In this document: piece by piece, positions 1,316 through 32,000 of the stretch | Position numbering within the stretch: position 1 is the stretch's first letter | Layout of the letters: the number at the start of each line of letters is the position of its first letter | From: an uncultured bacterium | GTDB taxonomy: Bacteria > Margulisbacteria > WOR-1 > CAVSGV01 | Reading direction: 5' to 3' | Assembly: GCA_963699255.1 (NCBI GenBank) | Contig: OY969425.1 | Span: 1,620,001-1,652,000 of the forward strand | DNA: 32,000 bases | Notes under the pieces: generated by a model | Database searches by the model: none | Told to the model about the DNA's origin: nothing | Seen by the model: only the letters and a program-made list of their open reading frames with translations | Position numbers and translations under genes: made by a program

Positions 1316-1331
1316 AAAGGAGGAATTTATC

Positions 1332-2252: not shown

Positions 2253-2254
2253 TA

Positions 2255-3361: not shown

Positions 3362-3390
3362 AAAATTCAATTTTATAAGAGAGGCACATA

Positions 3391-3474: not shown

Positions 3475-3480
3475 GGTGGA

Positions 3481-7263: not shown

Positions 7264-7276
7264 ATAAGGATAGACA

Positions 7277-7852: not shown

Positions 7853-7861
7853 AAGGGAAGT

Positions 7862-9853: not shown

Positions 9854-9856
9854 ACG

Positions 9857-10669
9857 TCAACCCACGAATCTGTAAGTGTTTATCTCTTCCTTCAGTTTTC
9901 TCGCAGCCTGTCTCGCGGCGCCGGCAAAATCTTCTCCGGAAGACGCGAATATTATGTTCCTGGACGAATTGATTATCGCGCGTTCACCTTTTTTATTTAC
10001 GCCGTAGCGGACGGATAGGGGAAGGTCCCCCTGCTGGGCGCCTATGCCGGGGATCAGTATCGGCATTTCTCCCGCTATCTTCCTTATCTCTTTCAGCTCC
10101 TCCGGGTTCGTGGCGCCGACAACGAGACCGCAGTTGCCCGAGACATCCCATTCCTTTACGTGCTTTGCGACCAGCTTATACAACGGCTCCTCCTTGCCCA
10201 GCACCTGGAAGTCTTTATGCCCGACGTTCGAAGTAAGGCAGAGAATGAATATTCCCTTGTCCTTGTATTCAAGAAAAGGCTCGACGCTGTCATAACCCAT
10301 GTATGGATTGATGGTCGTCGCGTCCGCTTTATATATCTCAAAAACGGCTTTCGCGTAGGCCGAGGCGGTATGGCCCACATCGCCTCTTTTCGCGTCAAGT
10401 ATTATCGGTATGTCGTCGGACGCGTATTCGATCGTTTTTATCAGCGCCTGCATCCCGTATATGCCGTACATTTCGTAGAACGCTATGTTCGGTTTGTACG
10501 CGCAGACCAGGTCTTTGGTCGCGTCGATGATCGCCTTGTTGAAATCGAAGATGGGGTCTCCTTTGTTGAGGAGCGAAGCGGGGATCCTTTTCAGGTCTAT
10601 GTCCAGTCCGATGCAGAGAAGGGAATTGTTCTTCTTGACTGCGGCGTCGAGTTTTTCAGTGAATTTCAT
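9857..10669 (-). CDS. pyrF: Orotidine 5'-phosphate decarboxylase
   Basis: 270 aa with the LCIGLDIDL and ILDAKRGDVGHTA motifs. Confidence 0.9.
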   Translation of the reverse strand: MKFTEKLDAAVKKNNSLLCIGLDIDLKRIPASLLNKGDPIFDFNKAIIDATKDLVCAYKPNIAFYEMYGIYGMQALIKTIEYASDDIPIILDAKRGDVGHTASAYAKAVFEIYKADATTINPYMGYDSVEPFLEYKDKGIFILCLTSNVGHKDFQVLGKEEPLYKLVAKHVKEWDVSGNCGLVVGATNPEELKEIRKIAGEMPILIPGIGAQQGDLPLSVRYGVNKKGERAIINSSRNIIFASSGEDFAGAARQAARKLKEEINTYRFVG

Positions 10670-15823: not shown

Positions 15824-15908
15824 CAAATGACAAATAAATCATTAAATGACAAATCAATAAATTTTAACCTATTTGGATTTTTCAGATTCATTTGGGTTTT
15901 GTCATTTG
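15824..15908. repeat. Inverted repeat CAAATGACAAA / TTTGTCATTTG within an A-rich arm and T-rich arm dyad
   Basis: 15824-15834 is the perfect reverse complement of 15898-15908. A second AAATGACAAAT copy lies at 15844-15854. The left arm contains the annotated ATG at 15827. Confidence 0.55.
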
Positions 15909-18304
15909 GATTTTGGATTTTAACATTGATTGCTCCTTCTTTCGGATCAACTATCCAGGAAGAATTCATGAAGAGCAGCAACTTTGTGCGCCAGGCTGGA
16001 ATGGGCGGCGCGGCAACGGCGGTCTGCGACGACCTGAGCTCCGTCTACTATAACCCGGCAGGACTGGCAAAAGCCGGGCCGCTCGGGTTTTCGTTCGGGA
16101 CCATCGATACCAACAAGGAGCTGCTGGATGAGTACCGTTATTATTGCTACAACCTGGGCACTCTGGCTTATCTCGGATACGACAAGATACTTCCCACGGG
16201 AGAAAAGGTCAAGGCGGATACTTTCGGGATGGGCGTGCAGACCGGGATGGGGATAAGTTACGGCCTGACTTACAAGAACATTTTTATCGATACCAATGCC
16301 AAGGAAGAAAGGGGCTACAGCGCGGACCTCGGCCTCTTGTTGAAAGTGTCCCCGCAGGTCTCGATCGGCGTGCTGGGTCAGGACGCGCTGTCGGATAAGG
16401 TACTGGAGATACCTTCGAGCACGCGAATAGGTGCCGCTTACAGGCCTTTTGAAGACCGGCTGATAATCGCCGCTGACTCTGAGCTCGGAAGGGCCGGACC
16501 CGGAGATTTCACTCATTACGGAGTGGAGTGGAAGGTCGCCGACGGCCTTAAACTCAGGGCCGGCATCGACAGCGGCAATACCACTTTTGGATTGAGCCTT
16601 GATCTTCCTTTCATGAGGATCCATTACGCCGGCATGCTGGATAAGGATGCTGAAAGCGGTACGGTGCAGATGGTGGGCGGAGAGATAAGCTTTTTTGAAA
16701 GTCCGAAAAGACCTATGTCAGTGATAAGGCCGAAGGAATATGCTTTGATAGAGATCGGCGGGAACATCGTCGGAGGAGTGGGGGATTTCAGCTTTTTGGG
16801 CGGCGGCCGTATCGGGGCTGACTCGATCATTGAACACATAAAACAGGCGACAAAAGACCCTTACATTGACGGGCTGATCCTGAGAATAAAAGGATTTGAC
16901 GGGGGAATGGGTTCCCTGGCGATCGTGCAGGAGATCAGGAGCGAACTTTTAAAATCAAAAGAAAAAGGCAAAAAGATCGTTGCGTATCTGGAGGAGGGCA
17001 CGCTCGGGGACGAATATTATCTGGCGTCCGTCGCGGATAAGGTCGTAGCTCCGTCCGCGGGGACCGTCGGCGGGATAGGGAAATCGATAAACATCGTCAA
17101 GGTAAAAGGATTGCTTGAAAAACTGGGCATAGAATCGCAGCTCCTTTCAAAGGGAAAATACAAGACAACATTCAATATGTTCTCATCCGATATCACAAAA
17201 GAGCAGAGATTGATGATACAGGATATTCTTTCCGATCTGTACCGGCAGATGGTCACCGATATCGAGAGCTCCAGAAAAGGGAAGATATCCATGGAAAAGC
17301 TGAAAGCGATATCCGACGGCAGCATATTCTCCGCCGGCAAGGCAAAGGAGCTCGGGCTTATCGATGAGGTCGGATACTTCAAGGACGCGATGAGCGCCGG
17401 AGCGGACCTTTATGGATCAAAGGATGAAATAAGCGTTATTGAGCAAAAAGACCTGTTCGTAGATGATGCCGATGGATATTTGTTCGCGTTCCCGAACAAG
17501 ATAGCCGTGATAGAGATCGACGGCGATATCGTCACGGGAGGATCCGGCCAGAACATTTTATTCGGCGGCCATACCACGGGAGCCGATGTCATTTGCGATC
17601 AGATACGTAAGGCCGCGGATGACTGGCAGGTGAAGGCGATGATCGTGAGGATAAACAGCGGCGGTGGCTCCGCGGTCGCGTCGGGCCAGATATATTCGGA
17701 GCTGGTAAGAGCAAAGAAAAAAGACAAGGTGATCGTTGCTTCCATGGGGGACATGGCGGCTTCGGGAGGATATTACATAGCTTCAGCATGCAACAAGATA
17801 GTGGCCGACCCGGGGACAATAACCGGGAGCATAGGAGTGATAGACGAAAGCGTTCTCAATTATTCGGGGCTTCTGAAAAAGCTCGGGATCACGGCCGAAA
17901 GCGTAAAAGAAGGAAAGCATGCCGACATGTTCTCGGGGCTTCGAAAACTCTCCACCGAAGAGGTAAACTCCGTGAACGCATACATTGAAGAGACTTACCA
18001 GGAATTCATTAAGGCCGTGGCCGACGGAAGGGGGATGACTACGGGCGAGGTCGCGTCGCTTGCGGAAGGAAAGGTTTACACCGGCAGTCAGGCCCTTGAC
18101 GTTAAGCTTGTGGATAAGATGGGCAACTTTACCGATTCCGTTAAGCTCGCTGCGGACATCGCGAAGCTGTCGGGAGAGCCGCAGCTTGTCTATTACAGAC
18201 AGCAGAACATGTTCCTGCAGTTAGGAGGCGGAGCGGTAAAGATGCTGGGGCTGGGGAACGGCATATTTCCCGATCAGGGCGGGCTTGTGGAGTATAAGCT
18301 TTAA
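15827..18304 (+). CDS. sppA: Fusion protein: N-terminal outer-membrane beta-barrel-like domain plus tandem signal peptide peptidase SppA (S49) domains
   Basis: About aa 48-290 carry the GMGGAATAVCDDLSSVYYNPAGLA motif seen in PorV/FadL-like barrels and end in VQMVGGEISF. About aa 300-825 hold two S49 repeats, with GDMAASGGYYIAS in the second. The start is uncertain: 15827 has no RBS, while ATG 15968 has AGGAAG upstream but would leave no signal peptide. Confidence 0.8.
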   Translation: MTNKSLNDKSINFNLFGFFRFIWVLSFGFWILTLIAPSFGSTIQEEFMKSSNFVRQAGMGGAATAVCDDLSSVYYNPAGLAKAGPLGFSFGTIDTNKELLDEYRYYCYNLGTLAYLGYDKILPTGEKVKADTFGMGVQTGMGISYGLTYKNIFIDTNAKEERGYSADLGLLLKVSPQVSIGVLGQDALSDKVLEIPSSTRIGAAYRPFEDRLIIAADSELGRAGPGDFTHYGVEWKVADGLKLRAGIDSGNTTFGLSLDLPFMRIHYAGMLDKDAESGTVQMVGGEISFFESPKRPMSVIRPKEYALIEIGGNIVGGVGDFSFLGGGRIGADSIIEHIKQATKDPYIDGLILRIKGFDGGMGSLAIVQEIRSELLKSKEKGKKIVAYLEEGTLGDEYYLASVADKVVAPSAGTVGGIGKSINIVKVKGLLEKLGIESQLLSKGKYKTTFNMFSSDITKEQRLMIQDILSDLYRQMVTDIESSRKGKISMEKLKAISDGSIFSAGKAKELGLIDEVGYFKDAMSAGADLYGSKDEISVIEQKDLFVDDADGYLFAFPNKIAVIEIDGDIVTGGSGQNILFGGHTTGADVICDQIRKAADDWQVKAMIVRINSGGGSAVASGQIYSELVRAKKKDKVIVASMGDMAASGGYYIASACNKIVADPGTITGSIGVIDESVLNYSGLLKKLGITAESVKEGKHADMFSGLRKLSTEEVNSVNAYIEETYQEFIKAVADGRGMTTGEVASLAEGKVYTGSQALDVKLVDKMGNFTDSVKLAADIAKLSGEPQLVYYRQQNMFLQLGGGAVKMLGLGNGIFPDQGGLVEYKL

Positions 18305-19777: not shown

Positions 19778-19924
19778 TTATTTCTTCTTCAGGCTGTTGT
19801 CAATGGAAGTTAATTTCTGATGGATCATGTAAAGCAGGACGGGCGCCGAGAACCACATGATGATAACGGAAAAGAAAAGCACCATCAATATAAGCCCGAA
19901 AAATCCGGTGAATACGGTGTTCAT
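19778..19924 (-). CDS. Possible small membrane protein (48 aa)
   Basis: I translated it by hand as MNTVFTGFFGLILMVLFFSVIIMWFSAPVLLYMIHQKLTSIDNSLKKK. GAGG lies 3 nt before the ATG. I recognise no homology, and it is too short for the ORF track. Confidence 0.25.
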   Translation of the reverse strand: MNTVFTGFFGLILMVLFFSVIIMWFSAPVLLYMIHQKLTSIDNSLKKK

Positions 19925-19981
19925 TAGCCTCATAAGGTATGGATTATAACACCACAATCCATTATAATAAAGCTTCGTATT

Positions 19982-21175
19982 ATGTTCTCATTTCAAACAA
20001 AACTATCGATGCTTCGGGCCGTTTTGACGAAAAGATCGCCATTCTACATCCAGTTCTATATCTCAAAGGCGTGCAACCTGGAATGCAAGATGTGCAACAT
20101 AGTGGAGGCGAACGCCGACCTGAAACCTTTCAAGACGGAAAACATCGAGGCGATCGCGGACAACCTGGTGAGGATCGGCGCCGGGGTGGTCCTTCTTACC
20201 GGAGGAGAGCCGTTCCTTCGGCCCGATATCGATGAGATCGTGCGGATATTCAAAAAAAAGAACCTGGACGTGAGGATGCAGACGGCGGGGCTTATGTCCA
20301 AGAAAGACAAGATCGCGAAATGCGTCGAGAACGGCGCGAGGGACATAAACGTCAGCATAGACTCGCTCGATGAAGAGATGTCGGATTACATAAACGGAGT
20401 AAAGGGTTCGTGGCGCGACGCCATGAAGGCCGTCTCATTTATCTCCCGCACTTTCCCGCGGAAAGACTCCATCTGCGCGCTTGGGTGCGTTCTGTCGCGA
20501 TACAATGTGGATGAGATCGACGCGCTCCTCGACTTCGCGACAAGGATCGGCTGGTGGTTGTCCCTTGTTCCCGTGCACATCACGGAGCCGTCAAATCCCC
20601 TGAATTTCCGCGGATATGACGAATATTTCAAGTTCCGCGAAAAAGACTTTACGAAGGTCAAAGAGCTTATCGACCGGCTGAAGAAAAAGAAAAAGCATGG
20701 AGCCATGCTTTTTGATTCCGATGATTACCTTGATTCGATCTACCACTTCATCAGGACCGGGCACCCCAGCTGGAGGCACAGGGGCGTGTGCGACACGCCG
20801 AACCTTTATTTTGCCATATTGCCTGACGGCAGGTTCGCCCCGTGCTGCGACTTCCGGATGAACGAGGTCGTATACGTCTATGACAGGAGCTTTCCCGACA
20901 TTTACAGGACCGCGAAATTCAGGGATGAAGTGAAGTCCATCGCGAAGAAATGCCCCGGATGCAATTTCGGCAGCTTTCCGGAGATGACGCTCTCAGCCAG
21001 GTCGCTGCCGACGATATTCGAAAGGCTTATGCTCCAGTTCAGGGCGCAGTCCAGAGGGATAAGGCCCATTGAAGAGAGCGAATTGTTCAGGTTGATCGAT
21101 GAAGTAAAAAGCGGCTACGATATTTATAGAACTGGAAGAACATACCCGCACAGGGAAGAAAAGGTGAAGGGCTGA
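19982..21175 (+). CDS. Radical SAM enzyme with a partial SPASM/twitch-like C-terminal cysteine motif
   Basis: A CX3CX2C motif (ACNLECKMC) lies near the N-terminus, and GGEPFL is present. The C-terminal CDTPNLYFAILPDGRFAPC fits Cx12Gx4C and is followed by CPGC. The start could instead be M10 at 20009. Confidence 0.85.
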   Translation: MFSFQTKLSMLRAVLTKRSPFYIQFYISKACNLECKMCNIVEANADLKPFKTENIEAIADNLVRIGAGVVLLTGGEPFLRPDIDEIVRIFKKKNLDVRMQTAGLMSKKDKIAKCVENGARDINVSIDSLDEEMSDYINGVKGSWRDAMKAVSFISRTFPRKDSICALGCVLSRYNVDEIDALLDFATRIGWWLSLVPVHITEPSNPLNFRGYDEYFKFREKDFTKVKELIDRLKKKKKHGAMLFDSDDYLDSIYHFIRTGHPSWRHRGVCDTPNLYFAILPDGRFAPCCDFRMNEVVYVYDRSFPDIYRTAKFRDEVKSIAKKCPGCNFGSFPEMTLSARSLPTIFERLMLQFRAQSRGIRPIEESELFRLIDEVKSGYDIYRTGRTYPHREEKVKG

Positions 21176-21176
21176 A

Positions 21177-23576
21177 ATGTCAAATTTATCCCTGATGATG
21201 AAGCAGGTGAAGAGATACAAGACCGTCGGTTTCGGGACGGGAGGAGGGATACTGAAGCACTCGCTTTATCCATTAAAGCTCTTTAAACAGGTCCTTCCGT
21301 CGAGCGGAGTGATACTCGACCTCGGCTGCGGAGAGGGCATGCTCACAAACCTCCTGTCCGCCGCTCTTCCCGCGGCAAAGATCCACGGCGTGGACCTGGA
21401 CCGGGAGAGGATAGAGAAAGCGGAAAAAGTCGCCGGCCCCACGGCGGACTTCGCGGCAAAGGACATATTGGACTGCGATTTCAGGGGGGCTTCGGCCGCG
21501 ATATTCAACGACGTCCTTCATCATCATCCGAAAGACCACCAGGTCAAGCTTCTTGAAGCGGCCAATAAGTTCCTCGATGACGACGGCCTTCTTGTCCTGA
21601 AAGAAGTGGACATCAGGGACAGGGCCGACGTCGCCTGGACCACTTTCTGGGACAAGAAACTCTATCCGAATGACACCCTTAACTTCAGGGGGAAAAGCGA
21701 ATGGGAAAAGGTGCTTCGCGAGACCGGGTTCAGGGTCATCGGCATTCACAGGGTCAGGCATCCATGGCCGGCATCCAGGACCGTTATCGTCGCCACGAAG
21801 CGCCCAAAACTTGAAAGGATCGAATTCAAAAAGATCGATAACGCGAAAGACCTGACAAAGGTCCTTGTCACCGGGGCGACGGGATTCATCGGCGAGCATC
21901 TGGTGCGCGAGCTGTTAACTAATGGGATGGGCGGCAGGGACGTGCAGATATCGCTCATAGTGCGCGACCCCTGCGGACTTCCGGAAGAAATAAGAAGCAA
22001 CTCCAGGGTGAAGCTGATCGTGGCCGACCTGAAAGACCTCGCGTCAAAGCGCGGAGAACTTTACGGCCATGAATATGTTTATCATCTTGCCTCAAAGGTA
22101 GCTTTCTTTGCCGGCAGGGATATCATGGATGACAACGTTCTTCCGACAAAGAACCTCCTTGAAGCTGTTTCAGGGCCAAAGCTCAAAAGGTTCGTTTACG
22201 CCAGCACCATGGGAGCCCTTGACAGGTCGAAGACCGATGACTGCTCGAGCCCGCTCGACGAGAACTCCCCCGCGCATCCCGTATCTTTCTACGGCAGGAG
22301 CAAGCTCGAAGGGGAGAGGCTTGTAAAAAGCTCAAAGCTTCCCTATACGATAGTCAGGATACCATGGTGCTACGGCCCGGGGATGTCAAAGACGCATCAC
22401 GTGAGGGTGCTCTTTGAAAAACTCATGAAAGGCGGGTTGGTTTTCCGCGTCAACTGGCCGGGGAAAGTGAGCATCATCGAGGCCGGTGAACTCGCGAAGA
22501 TATTCACCGCCGCTGCGGCGGACCCGAAGGCCCTGAACGGGACTTTCTTTGCTTCCGACGGGGAGCCGATCTCTTTTGGAGAGCTCTTCCGTGAGATGGG
22601 ACGCGTCGCGGGCAGGAAGACGGGGAAGATCAATATTCCAGGGACCTTAATATCGATCGCGAAAATATTCAGACTGTTCGCGCCGTTCCAGATTAAATCC
22701 CTTTATATGGACGTGCTGGCGGTCTCGAACTCAAAGCTTGAAGGCATCGGCATCAAAGTTAAAAAAAGAGGAGCGGATTTCCTTCTTCCGCTTGCCAGAT
22801 ACATCAACGAGCAGAAATTCCCGTCAAGATGGCGGTCAAAGGCGCTCATTACTGGCGCCGCGAGCGGGATCGGGTTATCGCTTGCCAAAAAATTCTTCTC
22901 TCTCGGGTACGGCCTCATGCTTGTCGACAGGAACAAGGACCAGCTTGATAATATCGCAGGTGAGCTTAAGGCCGACAGGAGGGTCGCAGACCTGTCCGAC
23001 CGGACTGCCCTGAAAGAACTGTGCGGCGAACTTGTGTCAAAATTAAATGACATCGAGATCGTCGTCAATAATGCCGGTGTCGGAGCCAGGGGGAATTTTG
23101 ATGAAATGGAGTGGAGCGCGATAGAGAGGCTGATATCCGTCAATTGCGTCGCGCCCGCTATGATCAGCCGCGCGTTCATTCCCGTTTTCAGGAAAGCGGG
23201 GAGGGGAACGGTGATCAATGTCGCGTCGTCGTCGGCGTTCCAGCCTCTTCCGTTCATGGCCGCGTATTCCGCTTCAAAAGCGTTCATGCTGAATTTTTCA
23301 CAGGCGGTCTCGGCCGAAAGCCCGGTCGAGATAATTACCGTCTCTCCTTCAGGCACAGCAACGAACTTTCAATCATCATCGGGAGTGAAAAGAGACAAAA
23401 ATGAAAAGCTTCTTGATCCCGATGATGTGGCGGCTCAAATGATTTCAAAGATTGGCAAAGGCAGTAAATACTATATAATAGGCAGTTCGGGTAAGTTCAT
23501 GAGCTTTGTTTCACGCTTATTGCCCGCAGCTGTCCAACTTAAGCTGTGGAAGCGCCTCATGGGCAAAATGAGATAA
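21177..23576 (+). CDS. Triple-domain fusion: class I SAM methyltransferase, extended SDR (NAD-dependent epimerase/dehydratase) and classical SDR
   Basis: The methyltransferase domain has ILDLGCGEGM. The extended SDR has VLVTGATGFIGEH and YGRSK (YxxxK). The classical SDR has ALITGAASGIGLS, NNAG and YSASK. All 799 aa lie in one uninterrupted frame. Confidence 0.8.
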   Translation: MSNLSLMMKQVKRYKTVGFGTGGGILKHSLYPLKLFKQVLPSSGVILDLGCGEGMLTNLLSAALPAAKIHGVDLDRERIEKAEKVAGPTADFAAKDILDCDFRGASAAIFNDVLHHHPKDHQVKLLEAANKFLDDDGLLVLKEVDIRDRADVAWTTFWDKKLYPNDTLNFRGKSEWEKVLRETGFRVIGIHRVRHPWPASRTVIVATKRPKLERIEFKKIDNAKDLTKVLVTGATGFIGEHLVRELLTNGMGGRDVQISLIVRDPCGLPEEIRSNSRVKLIVADLKDLASKRGELYGHEYVYHLASKVAFFAGRDIMDDNVLPTKNLLEAVSGPKLKRFVYASTMGALDRSKTDDCSSPLDENSPAHPVSFYGRSKLEGERLVKSSKLPYTIVRIPWCYGPGMSKTHHVRVLFEKLMKGGLVFRVNWPGKVSIIEAGELAKIFTAAAADPKALNGTFFASDGEPISFGELFREMGRVAGRKTGKINIPGTLISIAKIFRLFAPFQIKSLYMDVLAVSNSKLEGIGIKVKKRGADFLLPLARYINEQKFPSRWRSKALITGAASGIGLSLAKKFFSLGYGLMLVDRNKDQLDNIAGELKADRRVADLSDRTALKELCGELVSKLNDIEIVVNNAGVGARGNFDEMEWSAIERLISVNCVAPAMISRAFIPVFRKAGRGTVINVASSSAFQPLPFMAAYSASKAFMLNFSQAVSAESPVEIITVSPSGTATNFQSSSGVKRDKNEKLLDPDDVAAQMISKIGKGSKYYIIGSSGKFMSFVSRLLPAAVQLKLWKRLMGKMR

Positions 23577-23592
23577 GTTATCGAGGTAAAAT

Positions 23593-24543
23593 ATGGCGAT
23601 TAAAGAAACGCTGGACATAGTTATCCCCGTGTATAATGAAGAGGCCTGCATAAACAGGCTCATGGAGAGGCTTTTGTCCCTCAGGCAAAAAGCGGGGCCC
23701 CTGGAGATAAGCTTCATCTTCGTCAATGACGGCTCCACGGACAGCAGCGCGAAAATGCTCTTCGGCTATGCCGAAAAGCACGACTTCGTGAGGGTCATAA
23801 ATTTCAGCCGCAACTTCGGGCACCAGATGGCGGTAACGGCCGGGATAGACCATGCCGATGCGGATCACGTGGCTATCATCGACTCCGACCTCCAGGATCC
23901 TCCCGAGCTGATACTCGACATGCATAAGAAAGCGAAAGAAGGATTTGACATCGTATACGGGCAGAGGATCGCCAGGCCCGGCGACTCGTTCTTTAAAAGG
24001 GCGACCGCGCATTTTTTCTACAGGCTCATCAATGTAATGTGCGACATTGACATACCGTTCGATACGGGCGATTTTCGCCTTATCAGCAGGCGCGTGGCGG
24101 ACGAGCTGAAAAAAATGAGAGAAAAACACCGCTTCATCAGGGGGATGGTGCCGTGGCTCGGGTTCCGCAGCACGCCGCTGCCTTACAACAGGGAGAAAAG
24201 GTTCGGCGGCGAGACCAAATATCCGTTAAGAAAAATGGTCAGGTTCGCCCTTGATTCCATTTTCTCCTTCTCCAATGTTCCTTTGAAGATCGCCAACTAC
24301 CTGGGGATGGCGATCATATGTATCAGCGTTCTTGTCGGGCTGTTCCTGCTGTATTTAAGGCTCTTCACACGGTTTACCGTCCCCGGCATCACTTCTGTCC
24401 TTCTCGCGCTCATGTTCATCGGCGGGATACAGATAGTCATGACGGGGATAATAGGCGAATACATAGGCAGGATATTCGAGGAGTCAAAAGGCAGGCCCCT
24501 TTATGTCGTGTGGGAGACAAAGAACATCAGCAAAGGCCGCTAG
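23593..24543 (+). CDS. GT2 polyprenyl-phosphate glycosyltransferase (GtrB/ArnC/DPM1-like)
   Basis: IVIPVYNEE, VNDGSTDSS and DSDLQDPPELI motifs are present. Two C-terminal TM helices end in GEYIGRIFEE, which is the family architecture. Confidence 0.88.
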   Translation: MAIKETLDIVIPVYNEEACINRLMERLLSLRQKAGPLEISFIFVNDGSTDSSAKMLFGYAEKHDFVRVINFSRNFGHQMAVTAGIDHADADHVAIIDSDLQDPPELILDMHKKAKEGFDIVYGQRIARPGDSFFKRATAHFFYRLINVMCDIDIPFDTGDFRLISRRVADELKKMREKHRFIRGMVPWLGFRSTPLPYNREKRFGGETKYPLRKMVRFALDSIFSFSNVPLKIANYLGMAIICISVLVGLFLLYLRLFTRFTVPGITSVLLALMFIGGIQIVMTGIIGEYIGRIFEESKGRPLYVVWETKNISKGR

Positions 24544-25350
24544 ATGATGGACCAGGAAAAAACACTCACCAAAGAAGAGATATTCCATGACGGATGGGCG
24601 AACTCGATCGACGTCGACCGGCTTATGGTGGACGAGTCCTTCGAGGCCTGCACTGCCCCGGAGAACAGGCTCATAATGAAAAAGCTCGGCGACGTAAGGG
24701 GGAAGAATATCCTGGAGCTGGGATGCGGCGCGGGCGAGGCGGCGGTCTATTTCGCGAAAAAGGGCGCGCGTGTCACCGCCACCGACATATCGAACGGAAT
24801 GCTGGAAGTGGTCAAGAAGCTGGCGCGCAAGCACGGCGTGGAGGTGGAGACCCGGCAGAGCTATTCGCATACCATGCCGTTCGCCGACGGCACTTTTGAC
24901 ATAGTTTACGCGGCGAATCTTTTGCATCACGTGGACATAGAGAGCACTTTGAAGGAAGCGCGCAGGGTGCTTAAAAATGGAGGAGTTTTTGTGTCCTGGG
25001 ATCCCCTGGAGCACAATCCTTTGATCAAGCTTTACAGGAGGATTGCCACAAAGGTCAGGACCGAAGATGAACACCCCATTAAAACAAGCGACATTAAGAC
25101 CTTTAAGAGAATATTTTCAACGGTCGAGACCGACGCGACCTGGTTCTTTCCTCTGCTGATATTCGTGAAATTCTTCCTGGTCGACAGGATAAGCCCGAAC
25201 TCCGAAAGATACTGGAAGAAGATCATCGTTGAACATGAAAAACTCCAACGCGCGTACAATTTCCTGGAGAAGATGGATAAGGTCTTGTTCTCCGTTTTTC
25301 CTTTCATGAAGCGTTTCTGCTGGAACATCGTCGTGTTCGGGACAAAATAA
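24544..25350 (+). CDS. Class I SAM-dependent methyltransferase
   Basis: ILELGCGAGEAAVYFAKKGARVTATDIS (motif I) and the FDIVYAANLLHH...LKNGGVF segment are present. The start abuts the GT2 stop. Confidence 0.75.
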   Translation: MMDQEKTLTKEEIFHDGWANSIDVDRLMVDESFEACTAPENRLIMKKLGDVRGKNILELGCGAGEAAVYFAKKGARVTATDISNGMLEVVKKLARKHGVEVETRQSYSHTMPFADGTFDIVYAANLLHHVDIESTLKEARRVLKNGGVFVSWDPLEHNPLIKLYRRIATKVRTEDEHPIKTSDIKTFKRIFSTVETDATWFFPLLIFVKFFLVDRISPNSERYWKKIIVEHEKLQRAYNFLEKMDKVLFSVFPFMKRFCWNIVVFGTK

Positions 25351-25352
25351 CC

Positions 25353-27125
25353 ATGAAAAACTATTTTAGATTATTGAAATACGTTAAGCCCTACACAGGA
25401 CTGCTGTTGCTGGGATTCCTATGCTCTACCGCGCTTTCTTCAATAAGTGTAATGGTAATACCTATTGTTGGGAAACTCTCGGAAGCTATCGGAGTGAAGA
25501 ATTTCGCGCAATTGAACATGTTTATAGCCGCGGCGATAGGGCTTTATTTTTTAAGGGGGATTTTTTCTTTCGGGCAGGCCTATTTTATCTCTCATGCCGA
25601 TCAAGGCATAACAAAAGATCTCAGGCTTCAAGTATTTGAGCATCTCCAAAACCTCTCCTTGGATTTTTATTCAAAGACCAGGACCGGCGAAATAATAACG
25701 ATAATGATGAATGACATCAATATGATGCAGAATGTCATCATTGATTCCTTTACTTCCATTATCCCAAATATCATGACGATAGTAGGAGTGGCCGGATACC
25801 TTCTTTTTCTGGACTGGCGGTTAACGCTTGTTTCAATATTCATGCTTCCGGTCATCACCATCGTTTCAACTGGTTTCAGCAATCAGGCACGAGCTGTGGC
25901 AACGCAGACCCAGGAAAAAATATCCGACATAACTTCCGTTCTGCATGAAGTGGTGACCGGGGCAAAGATCGTGAAATCTTTTACCATGGAAAAGGAAGAA
26001 ATCAAAAAGTTTGAACATGTGTCAGAACATATGAAGCAATTCGCACTGAATGCGAGCATTTTAAGGGCTGCTCAAGCCCCGTTATTCAATTTCCTGCAGG
26101 CTATCGCCGCTGTGATAGTGATATGGGTCGGCGGGTTTGAGATCGTTTCAGGCAGGATTACCGCCACCAATTTAATTGCGTTCTTTTCTGGTGTACTTAT
26201 GCTTGGTGATCCCATCGGTGGCTTAAGCGGGCTGAATGTCACCATCCAAATAGCTTTGGTTTCCGCTAAAAGGGTTTTTAATGTTCTTGACACAAGGCCA
26301 ACCGTAAGCGAGGCAACAGATGCAAAAGATGTCAGCATTTTAAACGGAGAGGTTGTTTTTAATGACGTATCCTTTAAGTATGAGTCAAACAACGATCTTG
26401 TCCTTAGGAACATAAACATGAGTTGCAGGGCGGGTGAGGTCATCGCCATAGTGGGACATTCGGGTGCGGGAAAGAGTACTCTGGTCAGCCTGATCCCGCG
26501 GTTTTATGATCCTTTAAAAGGGGAAGTCATTATAGATGGCCATAATGTCAAAGAATATAAGATTATGTCTTTCAGGAAATTCATCGGGATAGTTCCCCAG
26601 GAAACGCTGCTTTTTTCCGGCACGATTAAGGATAACATAGCTTATGGAAGGATGAGTGCGACTGATAAAGAGGTAGAGGAAGTGGCAAAGATGGCGAATG
26701 CTCATGATTTTATCATGTCATTTCCTGAACAATACAACACTATCATCGGGGAGAAAGGCATCAGATTGTCCGGCGGGGAGCGTCAGCGCATAGCGATAGC
26801 AAGGGCTTTTTTAAGGGATCCGAAGATATTGATACTTGATGAAGCCACGTCATCGCTTGATTCAGAATCTGAAAATCTTGTGCAGCAGGCCTTGGAAAAA
26901 TTGATGAAGGGCAGGACCACATTTGTCATCGCTCACAGGTTGTCTACCGTTAAATTCGCGAACAGGATCATAGTAATTGATAAGGGTGCAATCGTTGAAG
27001 AAGGGACGCATGAGGAATTGATCAATAAAGAAGGTGGCACTTATAAAAAACTTCACGATATGCAATTGGGAAAATCGGAACCGGGAAACATAGTGGACAA
27101 CTTGGGCAAAGTTTACGCAAATTAA
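25353..27125 (+). CDS. ABC exporter with fused permease and ATPase (MsbA/PglK-type half transporter)
   Basis: 590 aa with an N-terminal six-TM-type domain. Walker A (GHSGAGKST), the signature motif (LSGGERQRIAIARA) and Walker B (ILILDEATSSLD) are present. Confidence 0.92.
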   Translation: MKNYFRLLKYVKPYTGLLLLGFLCSTALSSISVMVIPIVGKLSEAIGVKNFAQLNMFIAAAIGLYFLRGIFSFGQAYFISHADQGITKDLRLQVFEHLQNLSLDFYSKTRTGEIITIMMNDINMMQNVIIDSFTSIIPNIMTIVGVAGYLLFLDWRLTLVSIFMLPVITIVSTGFSNQARAVATQTQEKISDITSVLHEVVTGAKIVKSFTMEKEEIKKFEHVSEHMKQFALNASILRAAQAPLFNFLQAIAAVIVIWVGGFEIVSGRITATNLIAFFSGVLMLGDPIGGLSGLNVTIQIALVSAKRVFNVLDTRPTVSEATDAKDVSILNGEVVFNDVSFKYESNNDLVLRNINMSCRAGEVIAIVGHSGAGKSTLVSLIPRFYDPLKGEVIIDGHNVKEYKIMSFRKFIGIVPQETLLFSGTIKDNIAYGRMSATDKEVEEVAKMANAHDFIMSFPEQYNTIIGEKGIRLSGGERQRIAIARAFLRDPKILILDEATSSLDSESENLVQQALEKLMKGRTTFVIAHRLSTVKFANRIIVIDKGAIVEEGTHEELINKEGGTYKKLHDMQLGKSEPGNIVDNLGKVYAN

Positions 27126-27138
27126 GATATAAAAGAGG

Positions 27139-28512
27139 TTGGTTAGATTGAGCAGAAAAATCATTTTTACGGGAGAAAGAATAATCCCGGATCAAGTTGA
27201 CGATGATCTGTATAATGAGCATATTTCGCGCTATCTTTTTGCCAAAAGATATTTAAAAGGGAAAGTTGTTTTAGATGCTGGCTGCGGGGTGGGTTATGGA
27301 GCATATGAAGCCCGAAAAGCCGCAAAAAAGATATATGGGATTGACATATCAAAGGAATCTATCGAATATGCGAAGCGAAAATATTCTTCTACAAATATTT
27401 GTTTTGAAGTTGGAGATGTTAAAAAGCTAAGATTCAAAGACAATTTCTTTGATGTGATCCTTTCCTTTGAGGTAATAGAGCATCTCTCAAGGCAGGATAT
27501 TTACCTTGAGGAAATGAGGAGGGTTCTGAAGAAAAAAGGCTTGTTCTTTGTGTCTACCCCGAACAAAATCTATTATTCTAAAGAAGGGCGACCAAAAAAC
27601 CCTTTTCATACAAAGGAGTTTAATTTAAAGGAATTCAGCGGAATATTATCCAAACAGTTTAAATATGTATCAATATACAACCAGAACCACAATGCCGTAA
27701 TATCGATCTCCCCACAAAAACAGGGCACTTCCACGGCTGACATTGAAATTTGTGACGCGTCAAAAATCTCGCCGATAATGGATAATTATTTTATCGCGGT
27801 TTGTTCAAATGCCCCTATCGGCAAAAAAACGCGAAAAGACTTTATTTATTTGCCCCATAAGGGGAACATTATTTATGAAAGGACAAAATGGGCAAGGAGC
27901 CTTGATGAAAAACTTAAAAGAGGTGCTAAGTATATAGAAAAACTGCAGAAGGGGTTTGATGAAAAAGCCGCATGGGCAAACAATTTAAACAAAGAATTGA
28001 CGATAACGAAGAAAAATGCGGCAAGGTTACGCAAAGAATTTGATGAGAAAGCCGTATGGGCGAACAGTTTAAACAAAGAATTGACGATAATGAAGAAAAA
28101 TGCGGCAAGGTTACGCAAAGAATTTGATGAGAAAGTCGCATGGGCAAACAGTATAAACAAGGAGCTTGCTGAATCGAAGGGATACGCGGAGGGGTTAAGG
28201 ATAGGGCTTGATAATAAATCTCTGCTTGTGGAGAGCCTGAGGAAGGAATTAGACAGGATAGAAGAATTGAACGCAGAACTTGATTGTGAGCAATGCAGGA
28301 TTAAAAAGTCCCTATTTTATAAAGTGCATCTTTCATTTTTGTTTGTGTCAAATAATATCCATCGGCTTTTGGCCAGAAATAGGATTGTAAATTCTGCTGC
28401 TTCGACCGTTTTTCTTTTTGTTTATTTTGTCTTTAAAAATATTTTCATTCCATTTAGGTTGAATAAAGCAAAAAGCATCGCCAAAAAGGTGTTCTTGGAT
28501 GACGCCCGATAA
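27139..28512 (+). CDS. SAM methyltransferase with a long repeat-containing coiled coil and a hydrophobic C-terminus (WbdD-like architecture)
   Basis: FTGERIIP and VLDAGCGVGYGA methyltransferase motifs are present. A coiled coil spans about aa 240-400. The hydrophobic tail is FLFVSNN...VFLFVYFVFKNIFIPF. The ORF-track start is TTG 27139, but TTG 27148 has better RBS spacing. Confidence 0.75.
   Translation: MVRLSRKIIFTGERIIPDQVDDDLYNEHISRYLFAKRYLKGKVVLDAGCGVGYGAYEARKAAKKIYGIDISKESIEYAKRKYSSTNICFEVGDVKKLRFKDNFFDVILSFEVIEHLSRQDIYLEEMRRVLKKKGLFFVSTPNKIYYSKEGRPKNPFHTKEFNLKEFSGILSKQFKYVSIYNQNHNAVISISPQKQGTSTADIEICDASKISPIMDNYFIAVCSNAPIGKKTRKDFIYLPHKGNIIYERTKWARSLDEKLKRGAKYIEKLQKGFDEKAAWANNLNKELTITKKNAARLRKEFDEKAVWANSLNKELTIMKKNAARLRKEFDEKVAWANSINKELAESKGYAEGLRIGLDNKSLLVESLRKELDRIEELNAELDCEQCRIKKSLFYKVHLSFLFVSNNIHRLLARNRIVNSAASTVFLFVYFVFKNIFIPFRLNKAKSIAKKVFLDDAR
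27955..28167 (+). repeat. Tandem 84-bp (28-aa) repeat, about 2.5 copies, inside the methyltransferase coiled coil
   Basis: Copies start at 27955, 28039 and 28123. Copies 1 and 2 differ at 5 of 84 positions by my alignment. The encoded unit is FDEKAAWANNLNKELTITKKNAARLRKE. A degenerate copy precedes them. Confidence 0.9.
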
Positions 28513-29698
28513 AAGATTAAACATATTGTTCGTAACTGCAATGCTTCCGAGCAAAATGCACGGTGGCGGTGTTGTTATGCTTAATCTGATAAAGGAATTG
28601 TCAAAGTACAACGACATTTCACTGATCTCTTTTATTGATTTTGAAAAAGAAAGAGAATATATAAAGAACATAAAGCCATATGTTAAGAAAATCAGGATAT
28701 TTGAGAGGTGGTCGCAGAAAAAGCTTTTGGACAGGGGGGCGGATCTTGTTCCAGACGGCATCAGGACCGACTTCTATTGTCCGGAATTGGCGGAAGAAGT
28801 CAGCATTGAATTAAAAAGGAAAAAATATGATATTCTTCAGTTCGAATATTTACAAATGGCGATATACAAAGGCCTGTGTAGGATACCGAAAAGAATGAAA
28901 GTATTGATAACTGACCATGAAACAATTTGCGAGGCGTTCAGGCAAAGGATCAAGCTTTTTCCCCTCGGCATGTTCTGGAGCGATGTTAAAGAGTATTTGA
29001 GGTTTTTCCACTATGAAACCTCAGTATTAAAGCATTTCTCAAAGGTTTTTGTTTTTACCGAACAGGACGCGCTGAACCTGCTTAAATATTCCCCTGATAT
29101 AAATATTGCTATCCATCCTCTGGGGGTTGATTTTGATTATTTCTCAAGGGAGCTTGCGAAGGAGAAATTTCCTTCCCTTATATTTCTTGGCAATTATGAG
29201 CATTTCCCCAACCGGGAAGCTGTGGTTAATTTTAGCAAAAATCTATTCCCCAAGATCAAGGAAAAGTATCATGACATTAAATTTTATATTGTCGGTCATA
29301 TGCCTAGGAAAGAAATTTTGAAGCTTGCGGAAAACGATAAAAATATAATTGTGACCAATACGGTGGAAGATGTAAGGCCGTTCATACAGAGAGCGAGTAT
29401 ATTTGTGGCCCCGATCAAAAGCGGGACAGGCATGAGGTTAAAGGTTCTTGAGGCAATGGCCTCAAAAAAAGCAATTGTTTCCACGCGTCTTGGGTGCATG
29501 GGGATAAAGGCGGAGGACAAGAAGCATCTGCTGATAGCGAAAAATGATAATGAATTTATCGAAAACATTCTTTTATTACTTGAAAATGTACAGTTAAGAA
29601 AAGAACTGGGGCGTAATGCTTTTGAACTGGCAAAAAGTTATGACTGGAAAAATATAGCTCAGCAAAGGCAGAATGTATATTTAAAGCTTATGAAGTAA
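28499..29698 (+). CDS. Glycosyltransferase family 4 (GT-B fold)
   Basis: The N-terminus ILFVTAMLPSKMHGGG and the C-terminal SGTGMRLKVLEAMASKKAIVST (EX7E-type) are present. It overlaps the upstream gene by 14 nt. Confidence 0.85.
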   Translation: MTPDKRLNILFVTAMLPSKMHGGGVVMLNLIKELSKYNDISLISFIDFEKEREYIKNIKPYVKKIRIFERWSQKKLLDRGADLVPDGIRTDFYCPELAEEVSIELKRKKYDILQFEYLQMAIYKGLCRIPKRMKVLITDHETICEAFRQRIKLFPLGMFWSDVKEYLRFFHYETSVLKHFSKVFVFTEQDALNLLKYSPDINIAIHPLGVDFDYFSRELAKEKFPSLIFLGNYEHFPNREAVVNFSKNLFPKIKEKYHDIKFYIVGHMPRKEILKLAENDKNIIVTNTVEDVRPFIQRASIFVAPIKSGTGMRLKVLEAMASKKAIVSTRLGCMGIKAEDKKHLLIAKNDNEFIENILLLLENVQLRKELGRNAFELAKSYDWKNIAQQRQNVYLKLMK

Positions 29699-29707
29699 GG
29701 AGACGCT

Positions 29708-31081
29708 ATGGAAACGCTGCCGATATCTATTGTAGTATTAAACTGGGACGGAAAGCATTTATTAGAAGCTAATCTTCCTTCAGTAATTAAAGCCGCAAGT
29801 TACTATCCAAATACCAGAGAAATTATTGTGGTTGACAATGGCAGTACGGATGACAGTGTTGCGTTTCTAAAATCCGCTTATCCGCAAATTAAGGTTCTCG
29901 AATTGCATAAAAATCTGAGATTCACAGGGGGGAACAACGCGGGAGTAGAATATGCAAGCGGTGATATTGTTATTTTATTGAACAATGACATGAGGGTTTC
30001 GGAAAACTTTATCCTGCCCCTCGTGGAAGGGTTCAAATATAATGACAATGTTTTTGCCGTCTCATCCCAAATATTTTTTCTGGATAAGGACAAGAGAAGG
30101 GAAGAGTCCGGATTGACAAAGGCCTGGTTCAGGAAGGGGTGGCTGTTGACCGGCCATGTCGTTGAACAGAAAATAATTGACAAGATGAACAATTATGAAT
30201 TCACTTTCTGGGCCGGCGGGGGATCAACCGCCTTCGACAGGAAAAAATTTCTTGGGATAAAACTGGATACTCTTTACGACCCGTTTTATTTGGAGGACAT
30301 AGACATTTCTTATCAGGCATGGAAAAGAGGATATGTTATCTTATTCTCGAAGGGCAGCGAAACATACCATATGCACAGGGCTACAAATCGTGTTAAGTTC
30401 GGGGATGATTATATTGACGCAATAAGGAAAAGAAACACTTTTCTGTTCATCTGGAAGAACATTACCGCTCCCGATCTGATCCGGCAGCATTTATTCCGTT
30501 TGCCCCACATTATATCCAGTTCCATTAAAGAAGGGGGGATTGGCGAGCTATTTATTTTTTTTAAAGCTTTGATGAAATTACCTGAATGCATGAAGAAAAG
30601 ATATGAAAGTAAAAAGTATTATAAGCTAAGTGATGAGGATATTTTTAATGTATTTTCTGCGGATGGCAAACCCAAAAACACCAATTCTATTGATTTTTCT
30701 TTAGGTGATTTTAATGAAAACATTGGCGGTGACTGGCATAACAGAGAACTAAATTATCGATGGGTAGGGAAAAAATCGGTTTGTTATCTTTTTTCTGAAG
30801 ATAGAATGAAAAAGCTGATAGTGAAGGGTTATTGTGGGATACCGGAGCCGATTTTTAAAGGGAGAGAATTTATTTTGTCAATATTCATTAACAACAAACT
30901 GATGGTAAGAGAACCATTGCAAAATGGAGAGATCAATATTGAGTGTGATATCCATCAAATTAAAAAGCAGATGAATGAAATTGTTTTTAGTATGAATAAT
31001 ACTTTTAATTCAAAAAAAGCAGGCATTGGTGAAGATGAGAGAGATTTAGGCGTTATTATAAATAAGGTCGAAATGATTTAG
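29708..31081 (+). CDS. Glycosyltransferase family 2 with an extra C-terminal domain of about 150 aa and unknown function
   Basis: IVVLNWDG, VVDNGSTDDS and ILLNNDM are GT-A motifs. The C-terminal region (GGDWHNRELNYRWVGKKS...) resembles the GW..E...RW accessory domains seen on some glycan enzymes. Confidence 0.85.
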   Translation: METLPISIVVLNWDGKHLLEANLPSVIKAASYYPNTREIIVVDNGSTDDSVAFLKSAYPQIKVLELHKNLRFTGGNNAGVEYASGDIVILLNNDMRVSENFILPLVEGFKYNDNVFAVSSQIFFLDKDKRREESGLTKAWFRKGWLLTGHVVEQKIIDKMNNYEFTFWAGGGSTAFDRKKFLGIKLDTLYDPFYLEDIDISYQAWKRGYVILFSKGSETYHMHRATNRVKFGDDYIDAIRKRNTFLFIWKNITAPDLIRQHLFRLPHIISSSIKEGGIGELFIFFKALMKLPECMKKRYESKKYYKLSDEDIFNVFSADGKPKNTNSIDFSLGDFNENIGGDWHNRELNYRWVGKKSVCYLFSEDRMKKLIVKGYCGIPEPIFKGREFILSIFINNKLMVREPLQNGEINIECDIHQIKKQMNEIVFSMNNTFNSKKAGIGEDERDLGVIINKVEMI

Positions 31082-31261
31082 ATGTAAGACTTTTGTTATG
31101 ATGTCGGCTTATAATGAGCAGAATGCTTCAAGTGCAGTATAATTGAAAGTCTGTTTTTTCGGGGCAAGACCAGATTACGAGAAGATTAAATTAATAATTG
31201 TTAGAAGCAAAAATATAGGTGGTGTTTGGGATGGATTTGCGTTTGGTTCAAAGGTTTAAAT

Positions 31262-32000
31262 ATGAATTTTGAAGACTTTAAATATATTATTGTGGGTAGC
31301 GGTTTTTGGGGCAGTGTAATTGCAGAAAGAATTGCATCGGTTTTGAATGAACATGTTGTGATTCTTGAAAGGCGAAACCATGTAGGCGGGAATTCGTTTT
31401 CAAAAATACATAAAGAAACAGGGATTGAATACCATTGTTATGGGACGCATGTATTTCACACTTCTAATAAGAAGGTGTGGAACTATATAAGAACTTTTTC
31501 TGATTTTACTAATTATCAGCATAAAGTTTTTATTCAACACAAAAATCGCATATACAGTATGCCCATTAACTTGGCGACAATTAATGATTATTACGGGCTT
31601 AATTTAATGCCGTCTGAGATAAAAGCTTTTTTAAAAAAAGAGATAAATCGATCTGGCCATGTTTCATCTCCGTCAAATTTAGAAGACAAGGCAATATCAT
31701 TAATTGGTAAGCCCCTTTACGATTCCTTTATTCGAGGATATACATTTAAGCAATGGGGAACCGACCCTAAAAAATTACCCCCCGAAATATTTACTCGCCT
31801 CCCTGTTAGAGATAATTACAATATGAATTATTTTAATGATCCTTATCAAGGATTGCCTGAGTACGGTTACGCCAAATTATTTCAAAATATCCTGCTCAAT
31901 AAAAACATTCACGTCATGCTCAATACCGATTATTATAATGTCAAACACAAAATACCGAAAAGATGCAAGGTTATTTTTACTGGCGCAATAGATAAGCTTT
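31262..32000 (+). CDS. glf: UDP-galactopyranose mutase, 5' partial (runs off the window)
   Basis: I translated it by hand. It has IIVGSGFWGSV (FAD GxGxxG), ERRNHVGGN, YGTHVFHT, GYTFKQWG and RLPVRDNYNMNYFNDPYQGLP, which closely parallel E. coli Glf. It has no stop before 32000, so it is absent from the ORF track. Confidence 0.92.
   Translation, partial: MNFEDFKYIIVGSGFWGSVIAERIASVLNEHVVILERRNHVGGNSFSKIHKETGIEYHCYGTHVFHTSNKKVWNYIRTFSDFTNYQHKVFIQHKNRIYSMPINLATINDYYGLNLMPSEIKAFLKKEINRSGHVSSPSNLEDKAISLIGKPLYDSFIRGYTFKQWGTDPKKLPPEIFTRLPVRDNYNMNYFNDPYQGLPEYGYAKLFQNILLNKNIHVMLNTDYYNVKHKIPKRCKVIFTGAIDKL

Follow-up and report, generated by a model that had tools for sequence, protein, structure and literature searches.

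A nine-gene glycan locus of an uncultured Margulisbacteria bacterium: probable mosaic of a conserved cross-phylum cassette, an ABC half-transporter and an O-antigen-type module

Introduction

Nine adjacent genes with predicted roles in the synthesis of glycans or glycolipids occupy positions 19982-32000 of a 32-kb stretch of DNA, here termed the window, from an uncultured bacterium of the Margulisbacteria (WOR-1; contig OY969425.1, positions 1,620,001 to 1,652,000). The first four encode a radical S-adenosylmethionine (SAM) enzyme, a fusion of a methyltransferase with an extended and a classical short-chain dehydrogenase/reductase (SDR), a family 2 glycosyltransferase (GT2) resembling GtrB and a stand-alone methyltransferase; they are referred to as the cassette, or Block A. 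A gene for an ATP-binding cassette (ABC) half-transporter follows (Block B), and the run ends with genes for a methyltransferase carrying a coiled coil, a family 4 glycosyltransferase (GT4), a second GT2 and the UDP-galactopyranose mutase Glf (Block C).

The closest described relatives of the cassette are the Gtr-type systems, in which the product of a GtrB-like enzyme, a polyprenyl-phosphate sugar, is moved by a small flippase and then added to an extracytoplasmic glycan by a GT-C enzyme. Examples are GtrA/GtrB/GtrC of Shigella and Salmonella phages, CsbB/GtcA/YfhO and ArnC/ArnEF/ArnT. The lipid-linked donors known to us for extracytoplasmic glycosylation are limited to simple hexoses, aminoarabinose and pentofuranoses. 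Gtr-type systems for pentofuranoses have been described by Kelly et al. 2024 (PMC11127046), among them that of Citrobacter O2, where an auxiliary SDR epimerase changes the lipid-linked donor sugar; these authors state that they are aware of no further epimerase in a side-chain system (PMC11127046). In the literature searched, no paper was found that couples a radical SAM enzyme with a Gtr-type system, nor one that describes the four-gene cassette.

For Blocks B and C, two further groups of systems serve as references. Coiled-coil proteins that act as chain terminators and rulers include WbdD of Escherichia coli O8/O9a and Klebsiella O3/O5, ORF6 of Klebsiella O7 and WbbB of O12. Wzk of Helicobacter pylori and PglK of Campylobacter jejuni are MsbA-like flippases of undecaprenyl-diphosphate-linked glycans, and we know of no Wzk-type system that works with a coiled-coil terminator. 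An extended coiled-coil terminator has been described as a marker of ABC-transporter-dependent O-polysaccharide assembly (PMC11231755), and in terminators of the WbdD type the coiled coil serves as a molecular ruler (PMC11231755; PMC3482155). In H. pylori, the O-chain is completed in the cytoplasm and exported by Wzk without Wzm/Wzt or Wzx (PMC13533946).

Organisation of the nine-gene run

The run is read here, with a probability of a little under 0.6, as a mosaic of three blocks and not as one new pathway, the cassette being the donor arm of a Gtr-type system and Block C an O-antigen-type module. This reading is based on stepwise changes in the GC content of third codon positions (GC3), on the recurrence of the cassette without the other five genes and on the recurrence of Block C homologues without the cassette.

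The housekeeping genes upstream of the run have GC3 values of 0.56-0.66 and the first four genes of the run values of 0.66-0.72, with 0.49 for the ABC gene and 0.32-0.45 for the last four genes. The change is sharp at 25350/25353, and a second break occurs at approximately 27130. Such a stepwise change suggests that at least two acquisition events took place.

All nine genes lie on one strand, as had been stated in a first-pass annotation made from the sequence alone; this is the plus strand, and eight of the genes are complete and one is cut by the end of the window. The range that it gave for the junctions between 21175 and 29708, from a 14-nt overlap to a 16-nt gap, was likewise confirmed by the open reading frames (ORFs): the successive junctions across genes one to eight are +1, +16, 0, +2, +13, -14 and +9 nt, and a 180-nt gap precedes glf. 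Chance would not be expected to place nine genes on one strand with junctions of this kind, and a single transcription unit is plausible. Scans of the window for promoter and terminator consensus sequences returned nothing above shuffled expectation that would define a transcription unit, and an Rfam search of the window identified no RNA family. Profile searches with Pfam and NCBIfam recovered every domain that the first-pass annotation had listed.

Recurrence of the cassette in other genomes

Approximately 100 full-length relatives of the fusion protein were found among clusters at 90% identity, and gene context was examined at 15 loci carrying such relatives, twelve of which have enough flanking sequence. 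At all twelve, homologues of the radical SAM enzyme, the fusion, the GT2 and the methyltransferase (40-92% identity) occur together, in at least six gene orders. The order of the window (radical SAM - fusion - GT2 - methyltransferase) is found in L017, L023, L101 and L102; the others are fusion - radical SAM - methyltransferase - GT2 (L021, L032), radical SAM - methyltransferase - GT2 - fusion (L026), fusion - GT2 - radical SAM - methyltransferase (L030), GT2 - radical SAM - methyltransferase - split fusion (L033, L034, L036) and a divergent arrangement (L019). In the three loci with a split fusion, separate genes encode the methyltransferase with the extended SDR (MT-SDRe) and the classical SDR (SDRc). 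That the genes were kept together through this shuffling, and through the fission of the fusion, is strong evidence from gene context that the four form one functional unit. Named hosts of the cassette include metagenome-assembled genomes of an Elusimicrobiota bacterium (GCA_041660925) and of Opitutus (GCA_039917075); further matches to the fusion are from Verrucomicrobiota and from Thermodesulfobacteriota, in the latter case for the fusion alone.

The cassette is not accompanied by the genes for the ABC protein, GT4, second GT2, coiled-coil methyltransferase and Glf, except that the ABC gene is found with it in L101, and the other cassette loci have nothing of Block C beyond generic matches of 28-36% identity. 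L101 is a close relative of the window (approximately 80% nucleotide identity) and, apart from one transposase gene, has the same synteny from S1 to the ABC gene, which directly follows the cassette and inside which the contig ends. The first-pass annotation had made its interpretation depend on conservation of the gene block in related genomes. The nine genes are not conserved as a block, whereas the set of radical SAM enzyme, triple fusion, GtrB-like enzyme and methyltransferase, which it had singled out, is strongly conserved elsewhere.

The interpretation in question was of one operon with an assembly logic that is possibly new. Spelled out, all nine genes would form one non-canonical pathway, in which the sugar made by the cassette enters or primes a galactofuranose polymer and the MsbA-like ABC protein is the sole exporter. 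The single strand, the junctions of -14 to +16 nt and the lack of a terminator signal above expectation are all in keeping with this proposal, as are the position of the ABC gene, wedged between the two other blocks with gaps of 2 and 13 nt and following the cassette in L101 too, and the precedent of H. pylori, whose O-antigen export is served by a single ABC flippase, Wzk (PMC13533946). The two GC3 breaks speak against it, however, together with the presence of the cassette at more than ten other loci without the ABC, GT4, GT2 and Glf genes, and with Block C homologues that occur without the cassette and with Wzm/Wzt. A pathway of this kind would need no Wzm/Wzt, Wzx/Wzy or GT-C, but the missing parts may lie just downstream of the cut glf, and in L101 the contig stops too early for Block C to be judged. 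A single nine-gene pathway is thus considered unlikely. The more general expectations of a methylated, galactofuranose-containing surface glycan and of a lipid-linked donor are both reasonable in view of the GtrB-type synthase, the methyltransferase domains, Glf and the polymer-type glycosyltransferases.

Table 1. Coordinates of the genes and sub-features of the run, in window positions
Block	Feature	Position	Strand	Remarks
A	Cassette gene 1, radical SAM enzyme with SPASM/twitch-type C-terminal domain	19982..21175	+	397 aa
A	Cassette gene 2, triple fusion of methyltransferase, extended SDR and classical SDR	21177..23576	+	799 aa; domains from Pfam
A	Fusion, class I methyltransferase domain	~21288-21740	+	
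A	Fusion, extended SDR domain	~21858-22652	+	
A	Fusion, classical SDR domain	~22842-23573	+	Followed by C-terminal amphipathic tail
A	Cassette gene 3, GtrB-type polyprenyl-phosphate glycosyltransferase (GT2)	23593..24543	+	316 aa
A	Cassette gene 4, class I methyltransferase	24544..25350	+	268 aa; ~90-residue hydrophobic conserved C-terminal region
B	MsbA/Sav1866-like type IV ABC half-transporter	25353..27125	+	590 aa; Pfam ABC_membrane and ABC_tran
C	Methyltransferase with ~140-residue coiled coil and C-terminal hydrophobic anchor	27139..28512	+	457 aa; TTG start
C	In-frame 84-nt tandem repeat within the coiled coil	27955..28160	+	2.5 copies, 92% matches, Tandem Repeats Finder score 363
C	GT4-type (GT-B) glycosyltransferase, group 1	28499..29698	+	399 aa
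C	Second GT2, with ~140-residue C-terminal domain (residues ~315-457)	29708..31081	+	457 aa
C	UDP-galactopyranose mutase (Glf)	31262..32000	+	246 of 383 aa; cut by window end

Proteins encoded by the cassette

The GT2 of the cassette aligns over almost its full length (residues 7-308 of 316) with GtrB of Synechocystis (PDB accession no. 5EKP; E 2.7e-85) and also matches ArnC (E 3e-41) and Pfam Glycos_transf_2 (PF00535, 2.8e-33), while its NCBIfam matches are of the PgfS/ArnC-like kind, that to PgfS (258 bits) being below the cut-off of 500. Two hydrophobic helices are predicted at its C-terminus (residues 237-255 and 269-287, mean hydropathy 2.67 and 2.38). On this full-length homology and two-helix anchor, the protein is assigned to the GtrB type.

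The radical SAM enzyme was identified with Pfam (Radical_SAM, 1.9e-25, 90.4 bits; SPASM, 22.1 bits against a cut-off of 21.5). The CxxxCxxC motif (C31/C35/C38) as well as C169, C270, C288, C289, C324 and C327 are invariant among eleven cassette homologues, and this combination of cluster motif and auxiliary Fe-S cysteines places the protein by sequence in the radical SAM/SPASM-twitch superfamily. An alignment-based AlphaFold2 (AF2) model was obtained with a predicted local distance difference test (pLDDT) score of 93.6; its best fold match in the PDB is the cytosylglucuronate decarboxylase BlsE (E 1.7e-14; template modelling score 0.62 by query and 0.74 by target). BlsE is also one of the two best sequence matches (E approximately 1e-10), with AbmM marginally ahead, and MoaA, viperin and DesII were among the other fold or sequence matches. 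The cluster motif and the set of auxiliary-cluster cysteines are likewise shared with this group of enzymes. Identity to BlsE is only 17%, however, and the cassette enzyme belongs to a distinct and small family, with 108 cluster representatives at E<=1e-30 among 1.84 billion.

In the fusion, Pfam recognises Methyltransf_23, Epimerase and adh_short within one protein. Alignment with 13 homologues (35-61% identity) showed the SAM motif LDxGCGEG of the methyltransferase domain to be invariant, along with TGxxGFxG and S343/Y372/K376 of the extended SDR and GAxxGIG/NxAG and S684/Y697/K701 of the classical SDR. Among solved structures, the extended SDR comes nearest to the 4-epimerases of UDP-glucose and UDP-GlcA and to TDP-glucose 4,6-dehydratase (E approximately 1e-12). 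The amphipathic tail that ends the protein is conserved among the homologues.

The stand-alone methyltransferase (Pfam Methyltransf_11, 2.4e-26) shares with eleven homologues the SAM motif, an N-x-x-L-H-H motif and C-terminal hydrophobic segments (W200, PNxERYWK, CWNxV), and these segments exceed the transmembrane threshold in seven homologues. Together with the tail of the fusion, this hydrophobic region suggests that both proteins may act at the membrane surface. Both methyltransferases also have the invariant N-x-x-L-H-H past the SAM-binding region (NDVLHH in the fusion, NLLHHV in the stand-alone protein); the shared motif might have a catalytic or metal-binding role.

In NCBIfam, the radical SAM enzyme, the fusion and the methyltransferase all score below the cut-off of every model. 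Membership in the hopanoid (Hpn), mycofactocin, SynChlorMet and Arn pathways was considered and dropped, no NCBIfam model for these coming near its cut-off.

Genes adjoining the cassette elsewhere

Polytopic membrane proteins (390-1000 aa, 7-12 predicted helices) are encoded within two genes of the cassette at eleven of the twelve loci with enough flank. In two lineages, L017/L023 and L102, a clear PMT_2 (GT-C) protein is directly adjacent; a weak PMT_2 match was obtained in L019 and near-threshold YfhO matches in L026 and L032. In L028, the GT2 and methyltransferase genes are separated by a gene for a GtrA-family protein (4.3e-11), and a weak GtrA match was found in L036. The cassette and the PMT_2 gene of L102 lie within a cluster holding Wzx and Wzy_C-domain genes, and the cassette of L017 lies among glycosyltransferase and nucleotide-sugar genes.

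The cassette thus resembles Gtr-type systems in four respects: its GT2 is of the GtrB family with a two-helix anchor, in other genomes it has polytopic membrane proteins (PMT_2 or YfhO-like) as neighbours, with GtrA in some cases, it forms an add-on to glycan clusters of different kinds, and its auxiliary SDR has a precedent in Citrobacter O2. It differs from them in that the synthase comes with a fixed set of partners: a radical SAM/SPASM enzyme, methyltransferase-type domains spread over two proteins and two SDR domains. A further difference is that the window, which was searched for the GtrA, SMR and MATE families with Pfam, contains none of these and no GT-C; the ABC half-transporter after the cassette is instead the sole transporter candidate of the run.

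Two side observations were made among these neighbours. Three tandem membrane proteins of approximately 800-970 aa, without a Pfam family, are encoded before the cassette in L021 (Opitutus, 1394-9932) and L032 (1669-9938), and may be several transferases that share one donor. In L030, an MprF-like lysyl-phosphatidylglycerol synthase and an MFS transporter are encoded several kb upstream of the cassette (661-4381).

It was also considered whether the cassette makes an end product of its own, a glycolipid or a modified isoprenoid or other lipid, with tailoring on the lipid, the GT2 adding a head-group sugar and no GT-C involved. The classical SDR is closest to lipid, steroid and acyl-ACP reductases (17-beta-HSD11/13, ketoacyl-ACP reductases) and generic keto-reductases, the methyltransferases weakly match models for CMAS and for phthiotriol and fatty-acid O-methyltransferases, and a tetraether-lipid synthase is among the weak matches of the radical SAM enzyme. 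The membrane-associating tails, the lack of a GT-C in the window and the lipid-modifying MprF-like gene of L030 would also suit such a product. Conversely, the GT2 is a full-length homologue of GtrB, a family whose known acceptors are polyprenyl phosphates, the extended SDR is closest to nucleotide-sugar enzymes, the best fold match of the radical SAM enzyme acts on a nucleoside-linked sugar, and at other loci the cassette has PMT_2 GT-C genes, GtrA or glycan clusters at its side. A lipid end product is therefore regarded as improbable, and the cassette as a probable means of making a tailored lipid-linked sugar, rare, uncharacterised and spread across phyla.

The low-GC module

The first gene of Block C encodes a class I methyltransferase with its Pfam methyltransferase domains at the N-terminus (residues 40-173), a heptad register unbroken across residues 245-390 and a hydrophobic segment at residues 421-439. 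The coiled coil contains a tandem repeat (Table 1) of which each unit corresponds to 28 aa, or four heptads, and the register is kept across the copies; a change in copy number would therefore lengthen or shorten the putative ruler with its register intact. A single-sequence AF2 model of the protein was poor (pLDDT 42), with long helices at residues 248-344 and 351-380. In a 340-aa stretch that extends into the beginning of the coiled coil, the protein is 35% identical to a methyltransferase encoded beside Wzm and Wzt in the Terriglobia locus L003. The combination of methyltransferase, extended coiled coil and C-terminal membrane anchor in one protein is that of WbdD-type terminators, and by this architecture the protein is a candidate chain terminator and molecular ruler. 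Pfam identified no kinase domain in it, in contrast to WbdD, and the recent 28-residue tandem duplication in its coiled coil is a further point of difference.

The two glycosyltransferases of Block C are adjacent polymerase candidates, as in WbdD-type systems. The GT4 matches Pfam Glyco_trans_1_4 (1.1e-25) and TIGR03087 (181 bits against a cut-off of 317), and its homologues (approximately 31% identity) adjoin GT2 homologues at twelve Terriglobia/Acidobacteriota loci. The second GT2 matches Pfam Glycos_transf_2 over residues 7-136 only (8.3e-21); its closest genome relatives are from Terriglobia (43-55% identity), with a full-length match in L003 only (44%). Its C-terminal domain has no Pfam match, is shared by the L003 homologue only and could be a carbohydrate-binding or docking domain. 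The Glf fragment matches PF03275 (GLF, 8.8e-30), PF13450 (NAD_binding_8, 3.3e-14) and TIGR00031 (1.9e-59), and is 100% identical over the part present to the full-length Glf product P0119 (383 aa). A GLF domain together with an N-terminal FAD-binding fold identifies it, by sequence, as a UDP-galactopyranose mutase.

The gene order in L003 is Wzm, Wzt with Wzt_C, methyltransferase, epimerase/dehydratase, RmlD, GT2 homologue and GT4 homologue, and L004, L005 and L014 likewise have a Wzt with Wzt_C next to their GT2/GT4 pair. In Terriglobia, the set of GT2, GT4 and methyltransferase thus occurs without the cassette and beside canonical Wzm and Wzt. On account of this context and of the WbdD-type architecture, Block C is, as judged from its homologues, of a known pathway type, dependent on an ABC transporter and with a coiled-coil terminator, for which Glf would supply the precursor.

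The ABC half-transporter

Unlike WbdD-type loci, the window has no wzm/wzt; at the position that these genes hold in L003, directly before the terminator methyltransferase, lies the gene for an MsbA-type half-transporter without a carbohydrate-binding domain. The same gene holds the place that GT-C genes take after the cassette in L017 and L102. In L101 it directly follows the cassette (70% amino acid identity), and it is absent from all other cassette loci.

As in Wzk and PglK, the half-transporter is a single polypeptide of the type IV class encoded among glycan genes. Its score against the PglK model (NF050066), however, is 219.9 bits against a cut-off of 1000, so that the sequence does not qualify as PglK, and the MsbA models score higher: 538.5 bits for TIGR02203 (cut-off 602) and 436.7 for NF008381 (cut-off 867). 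The protein thus falls under the curated MsbA cut-off, though close to it, and may yet be an MsbA. It may be a Wzk-like exporter of the completed chain, a flippase for the cassette's donor or a housekeeping MsbA.

In the last case the protein would be the lipid A-core flippase, serving neither block specifically and placed between them by chance or by loose clustering of envelope genes. MsbA_lipidA (TIGR02203) is its best NCBIfam model, MsbA structures are among its best half-transporter matches, synteny is kept in the sister genome L101, and its GC3 is nearer to that of the genome than Block C's is. Against this stand a score below the curated cut-off, a better PDB match to Sav1866 (414 bits) than to MsbA (382 bits), a GC3 well under that of the housekeeping genes, short gaps to both neighbours that suggest co-expression, and the wzm/wzt position of the gene. 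A housekeeping role is accordingly rated as rather doubtful.

Proposed roles of the three blocks

The data above show the identities of the domains, the conservation of the cassette and its membrane-protein neighbours, the break in composition and the Wzm/Wzt setting of the Block C homologues. For the mosaic reading, we infer from them which substrates and acceptor are used, in what order the tailoring takes place and what the transporter does, as follows. In Block A, a hexose would be modified by the radical SAM enzyme, both SDR domains and the methyltransferase domains, probably partly at the nucleotide-sugar stage and perhaps also at the membrane, in view of the conserved tails, hydrophobic or amphipathic, of the stand-alone methyltransferase and the fusion. 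The GtrB-type GT2 would load the modified sugar onto undecaprenyl phosphate and, after flipping, a GT-C enzyme would add it to a surface glycan outside the cytoplasm; such an enzyme is encoded beside the cassette in other genomes and not in the window. Block C would be a horizontally acquired low-GC module in which the GT4 and second GT2 assemble, within the cytoplasm and on a lipid carrier, a polymer that contains galactofuranose, with the membrane-anchored methyltransferase on its coiled-coil stalk capping the chain and setting its length. Block B most plausibly flips either this completed lipid-linked chain, in the manner of Wzk and PglK, or the lipid-linked sugar of the cassette.

Several findings weigh against this reading. 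GT-C, GtrA, Wzm/Wzt, ligase and initiating transferase genes are absent from the 32 kb, the extent to which all statements on absent pathway genes apply, and neither pathway is complete here. Given the tight junctions and the fact that no terminators were detected, all nine genes may share one transcript and be functionally coupled. The peptide-modifying SPASM enzymes SuiB, PqqE and SkfB match the radical SAM model with scores similar to that of BlsE, and the lipid-type relatives of the classical SDR have been mentioned above. Most of the membrane proteins adjoining the cassette have no Pfam or NCBIfam family and show almost no mutual homology in all-against-all BLAST, and for most of them the GT-C label is given by analogy with the two PMT_2 lineages. 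Lastly, no WbdD chain is among the 56 PDB sequences matching the coiled-coil methyltransferase at E<=0.001.

The first-pass annotation had laid weight on the absence of Wzx, Wzy, Wzm/Wzt, an initiating phosphoglycosyltransferase and GT-C from the window. None of these families was matched in Pfam by any large ORF in the 32 kb, which agrees with that statement, the window ending inside glf. That wzm/wzt, GT-C and an initiating transferase are missing is nevertheless weak evidence, because the window stops within glf and because the gene for an initiating transferase such as WecA often lies at another place in the genome.

The most interesting element of the run is the conserved, rare, cross-phylum cassette, which appears to be an uncharacterised variant of Gtr-type lipid-linked donor synthesis. 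It is tentatively considered, as a possible though less than even case, that the cassette represents an undescribed pathway to a new modified sugar on undecaprenyl phosphate, an add-on donor for periplasmic glycosylation that is portable across phyla, with the MsbA-type ABC protein replacing a GtrA-type flippase or Wzm/Wzt. The sugar could then be C- or O-methylated, epimerised, deoxygenated or decarboxylated, with two or three methyltransferase activities involved. The combination of a modified-sugar cassette with such an MsbA-type replacement has not been reported. If the proposed function of the cassette is correct, the lipid-linked sugar donors of extracytoplasmic glycosylation would come to include products of radical SAM chemistry, the four genes would offer a compact transferable unit for glycoengineering, and the cassette could be used in bioinformatic surveys to point to unknown sugars of uncultured phyla such as Margulisiibacteriota, Elusimicrobiota and Verrucomicrobiota. 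It is also possible that an MsbA-type exporter serves a ruler-type pathway; export solutions beyond Wzm/Wzt would in that event be wider than now described. If neither holds, the locus would be an ordinary O-antigen-like island beside a conserved modification cassette.

Upstream genes and minor observations

The 20 kb upstream of the run consist of housekeeping genes: Znu, KdpABC with a KdpD-like protein, PyrF, S1, PCMT, an arginase-family protein, GltX, SppA and RsmH. The closest named relatives of GltX are from Margulisiibacteriota/Saganbacteria (63-70% identity). A phage or plasmid origin was considered and dropped, given the housekeeping context upstream and the lack of any sign of either. 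A 331-aa ORF at 249-1244 has no Pfam match.

In the KdpD-like protein (7862-9853), KdpD sensor, Usp and DUF4118 domains and a weak GAF match were identified, and neither a histidine-kinase nor an ATPase domain was detected. The SppA (peptidase S49) homologue (15827-18304) is 825 aa long, with approximately 300 N-terminal residues lying outside its strongest Pfam match. An IS200/IS605-type Y1 transposase is encoded between ftsL and rsmH in L101 (7232-7663), with none in the window. Between rsmH and the radical SAM gene, a hydrophobic ORF of 51 codons lies on the minus strand (19778-19933); gene calling also recovered it in the Logan contig L002 and in L101.

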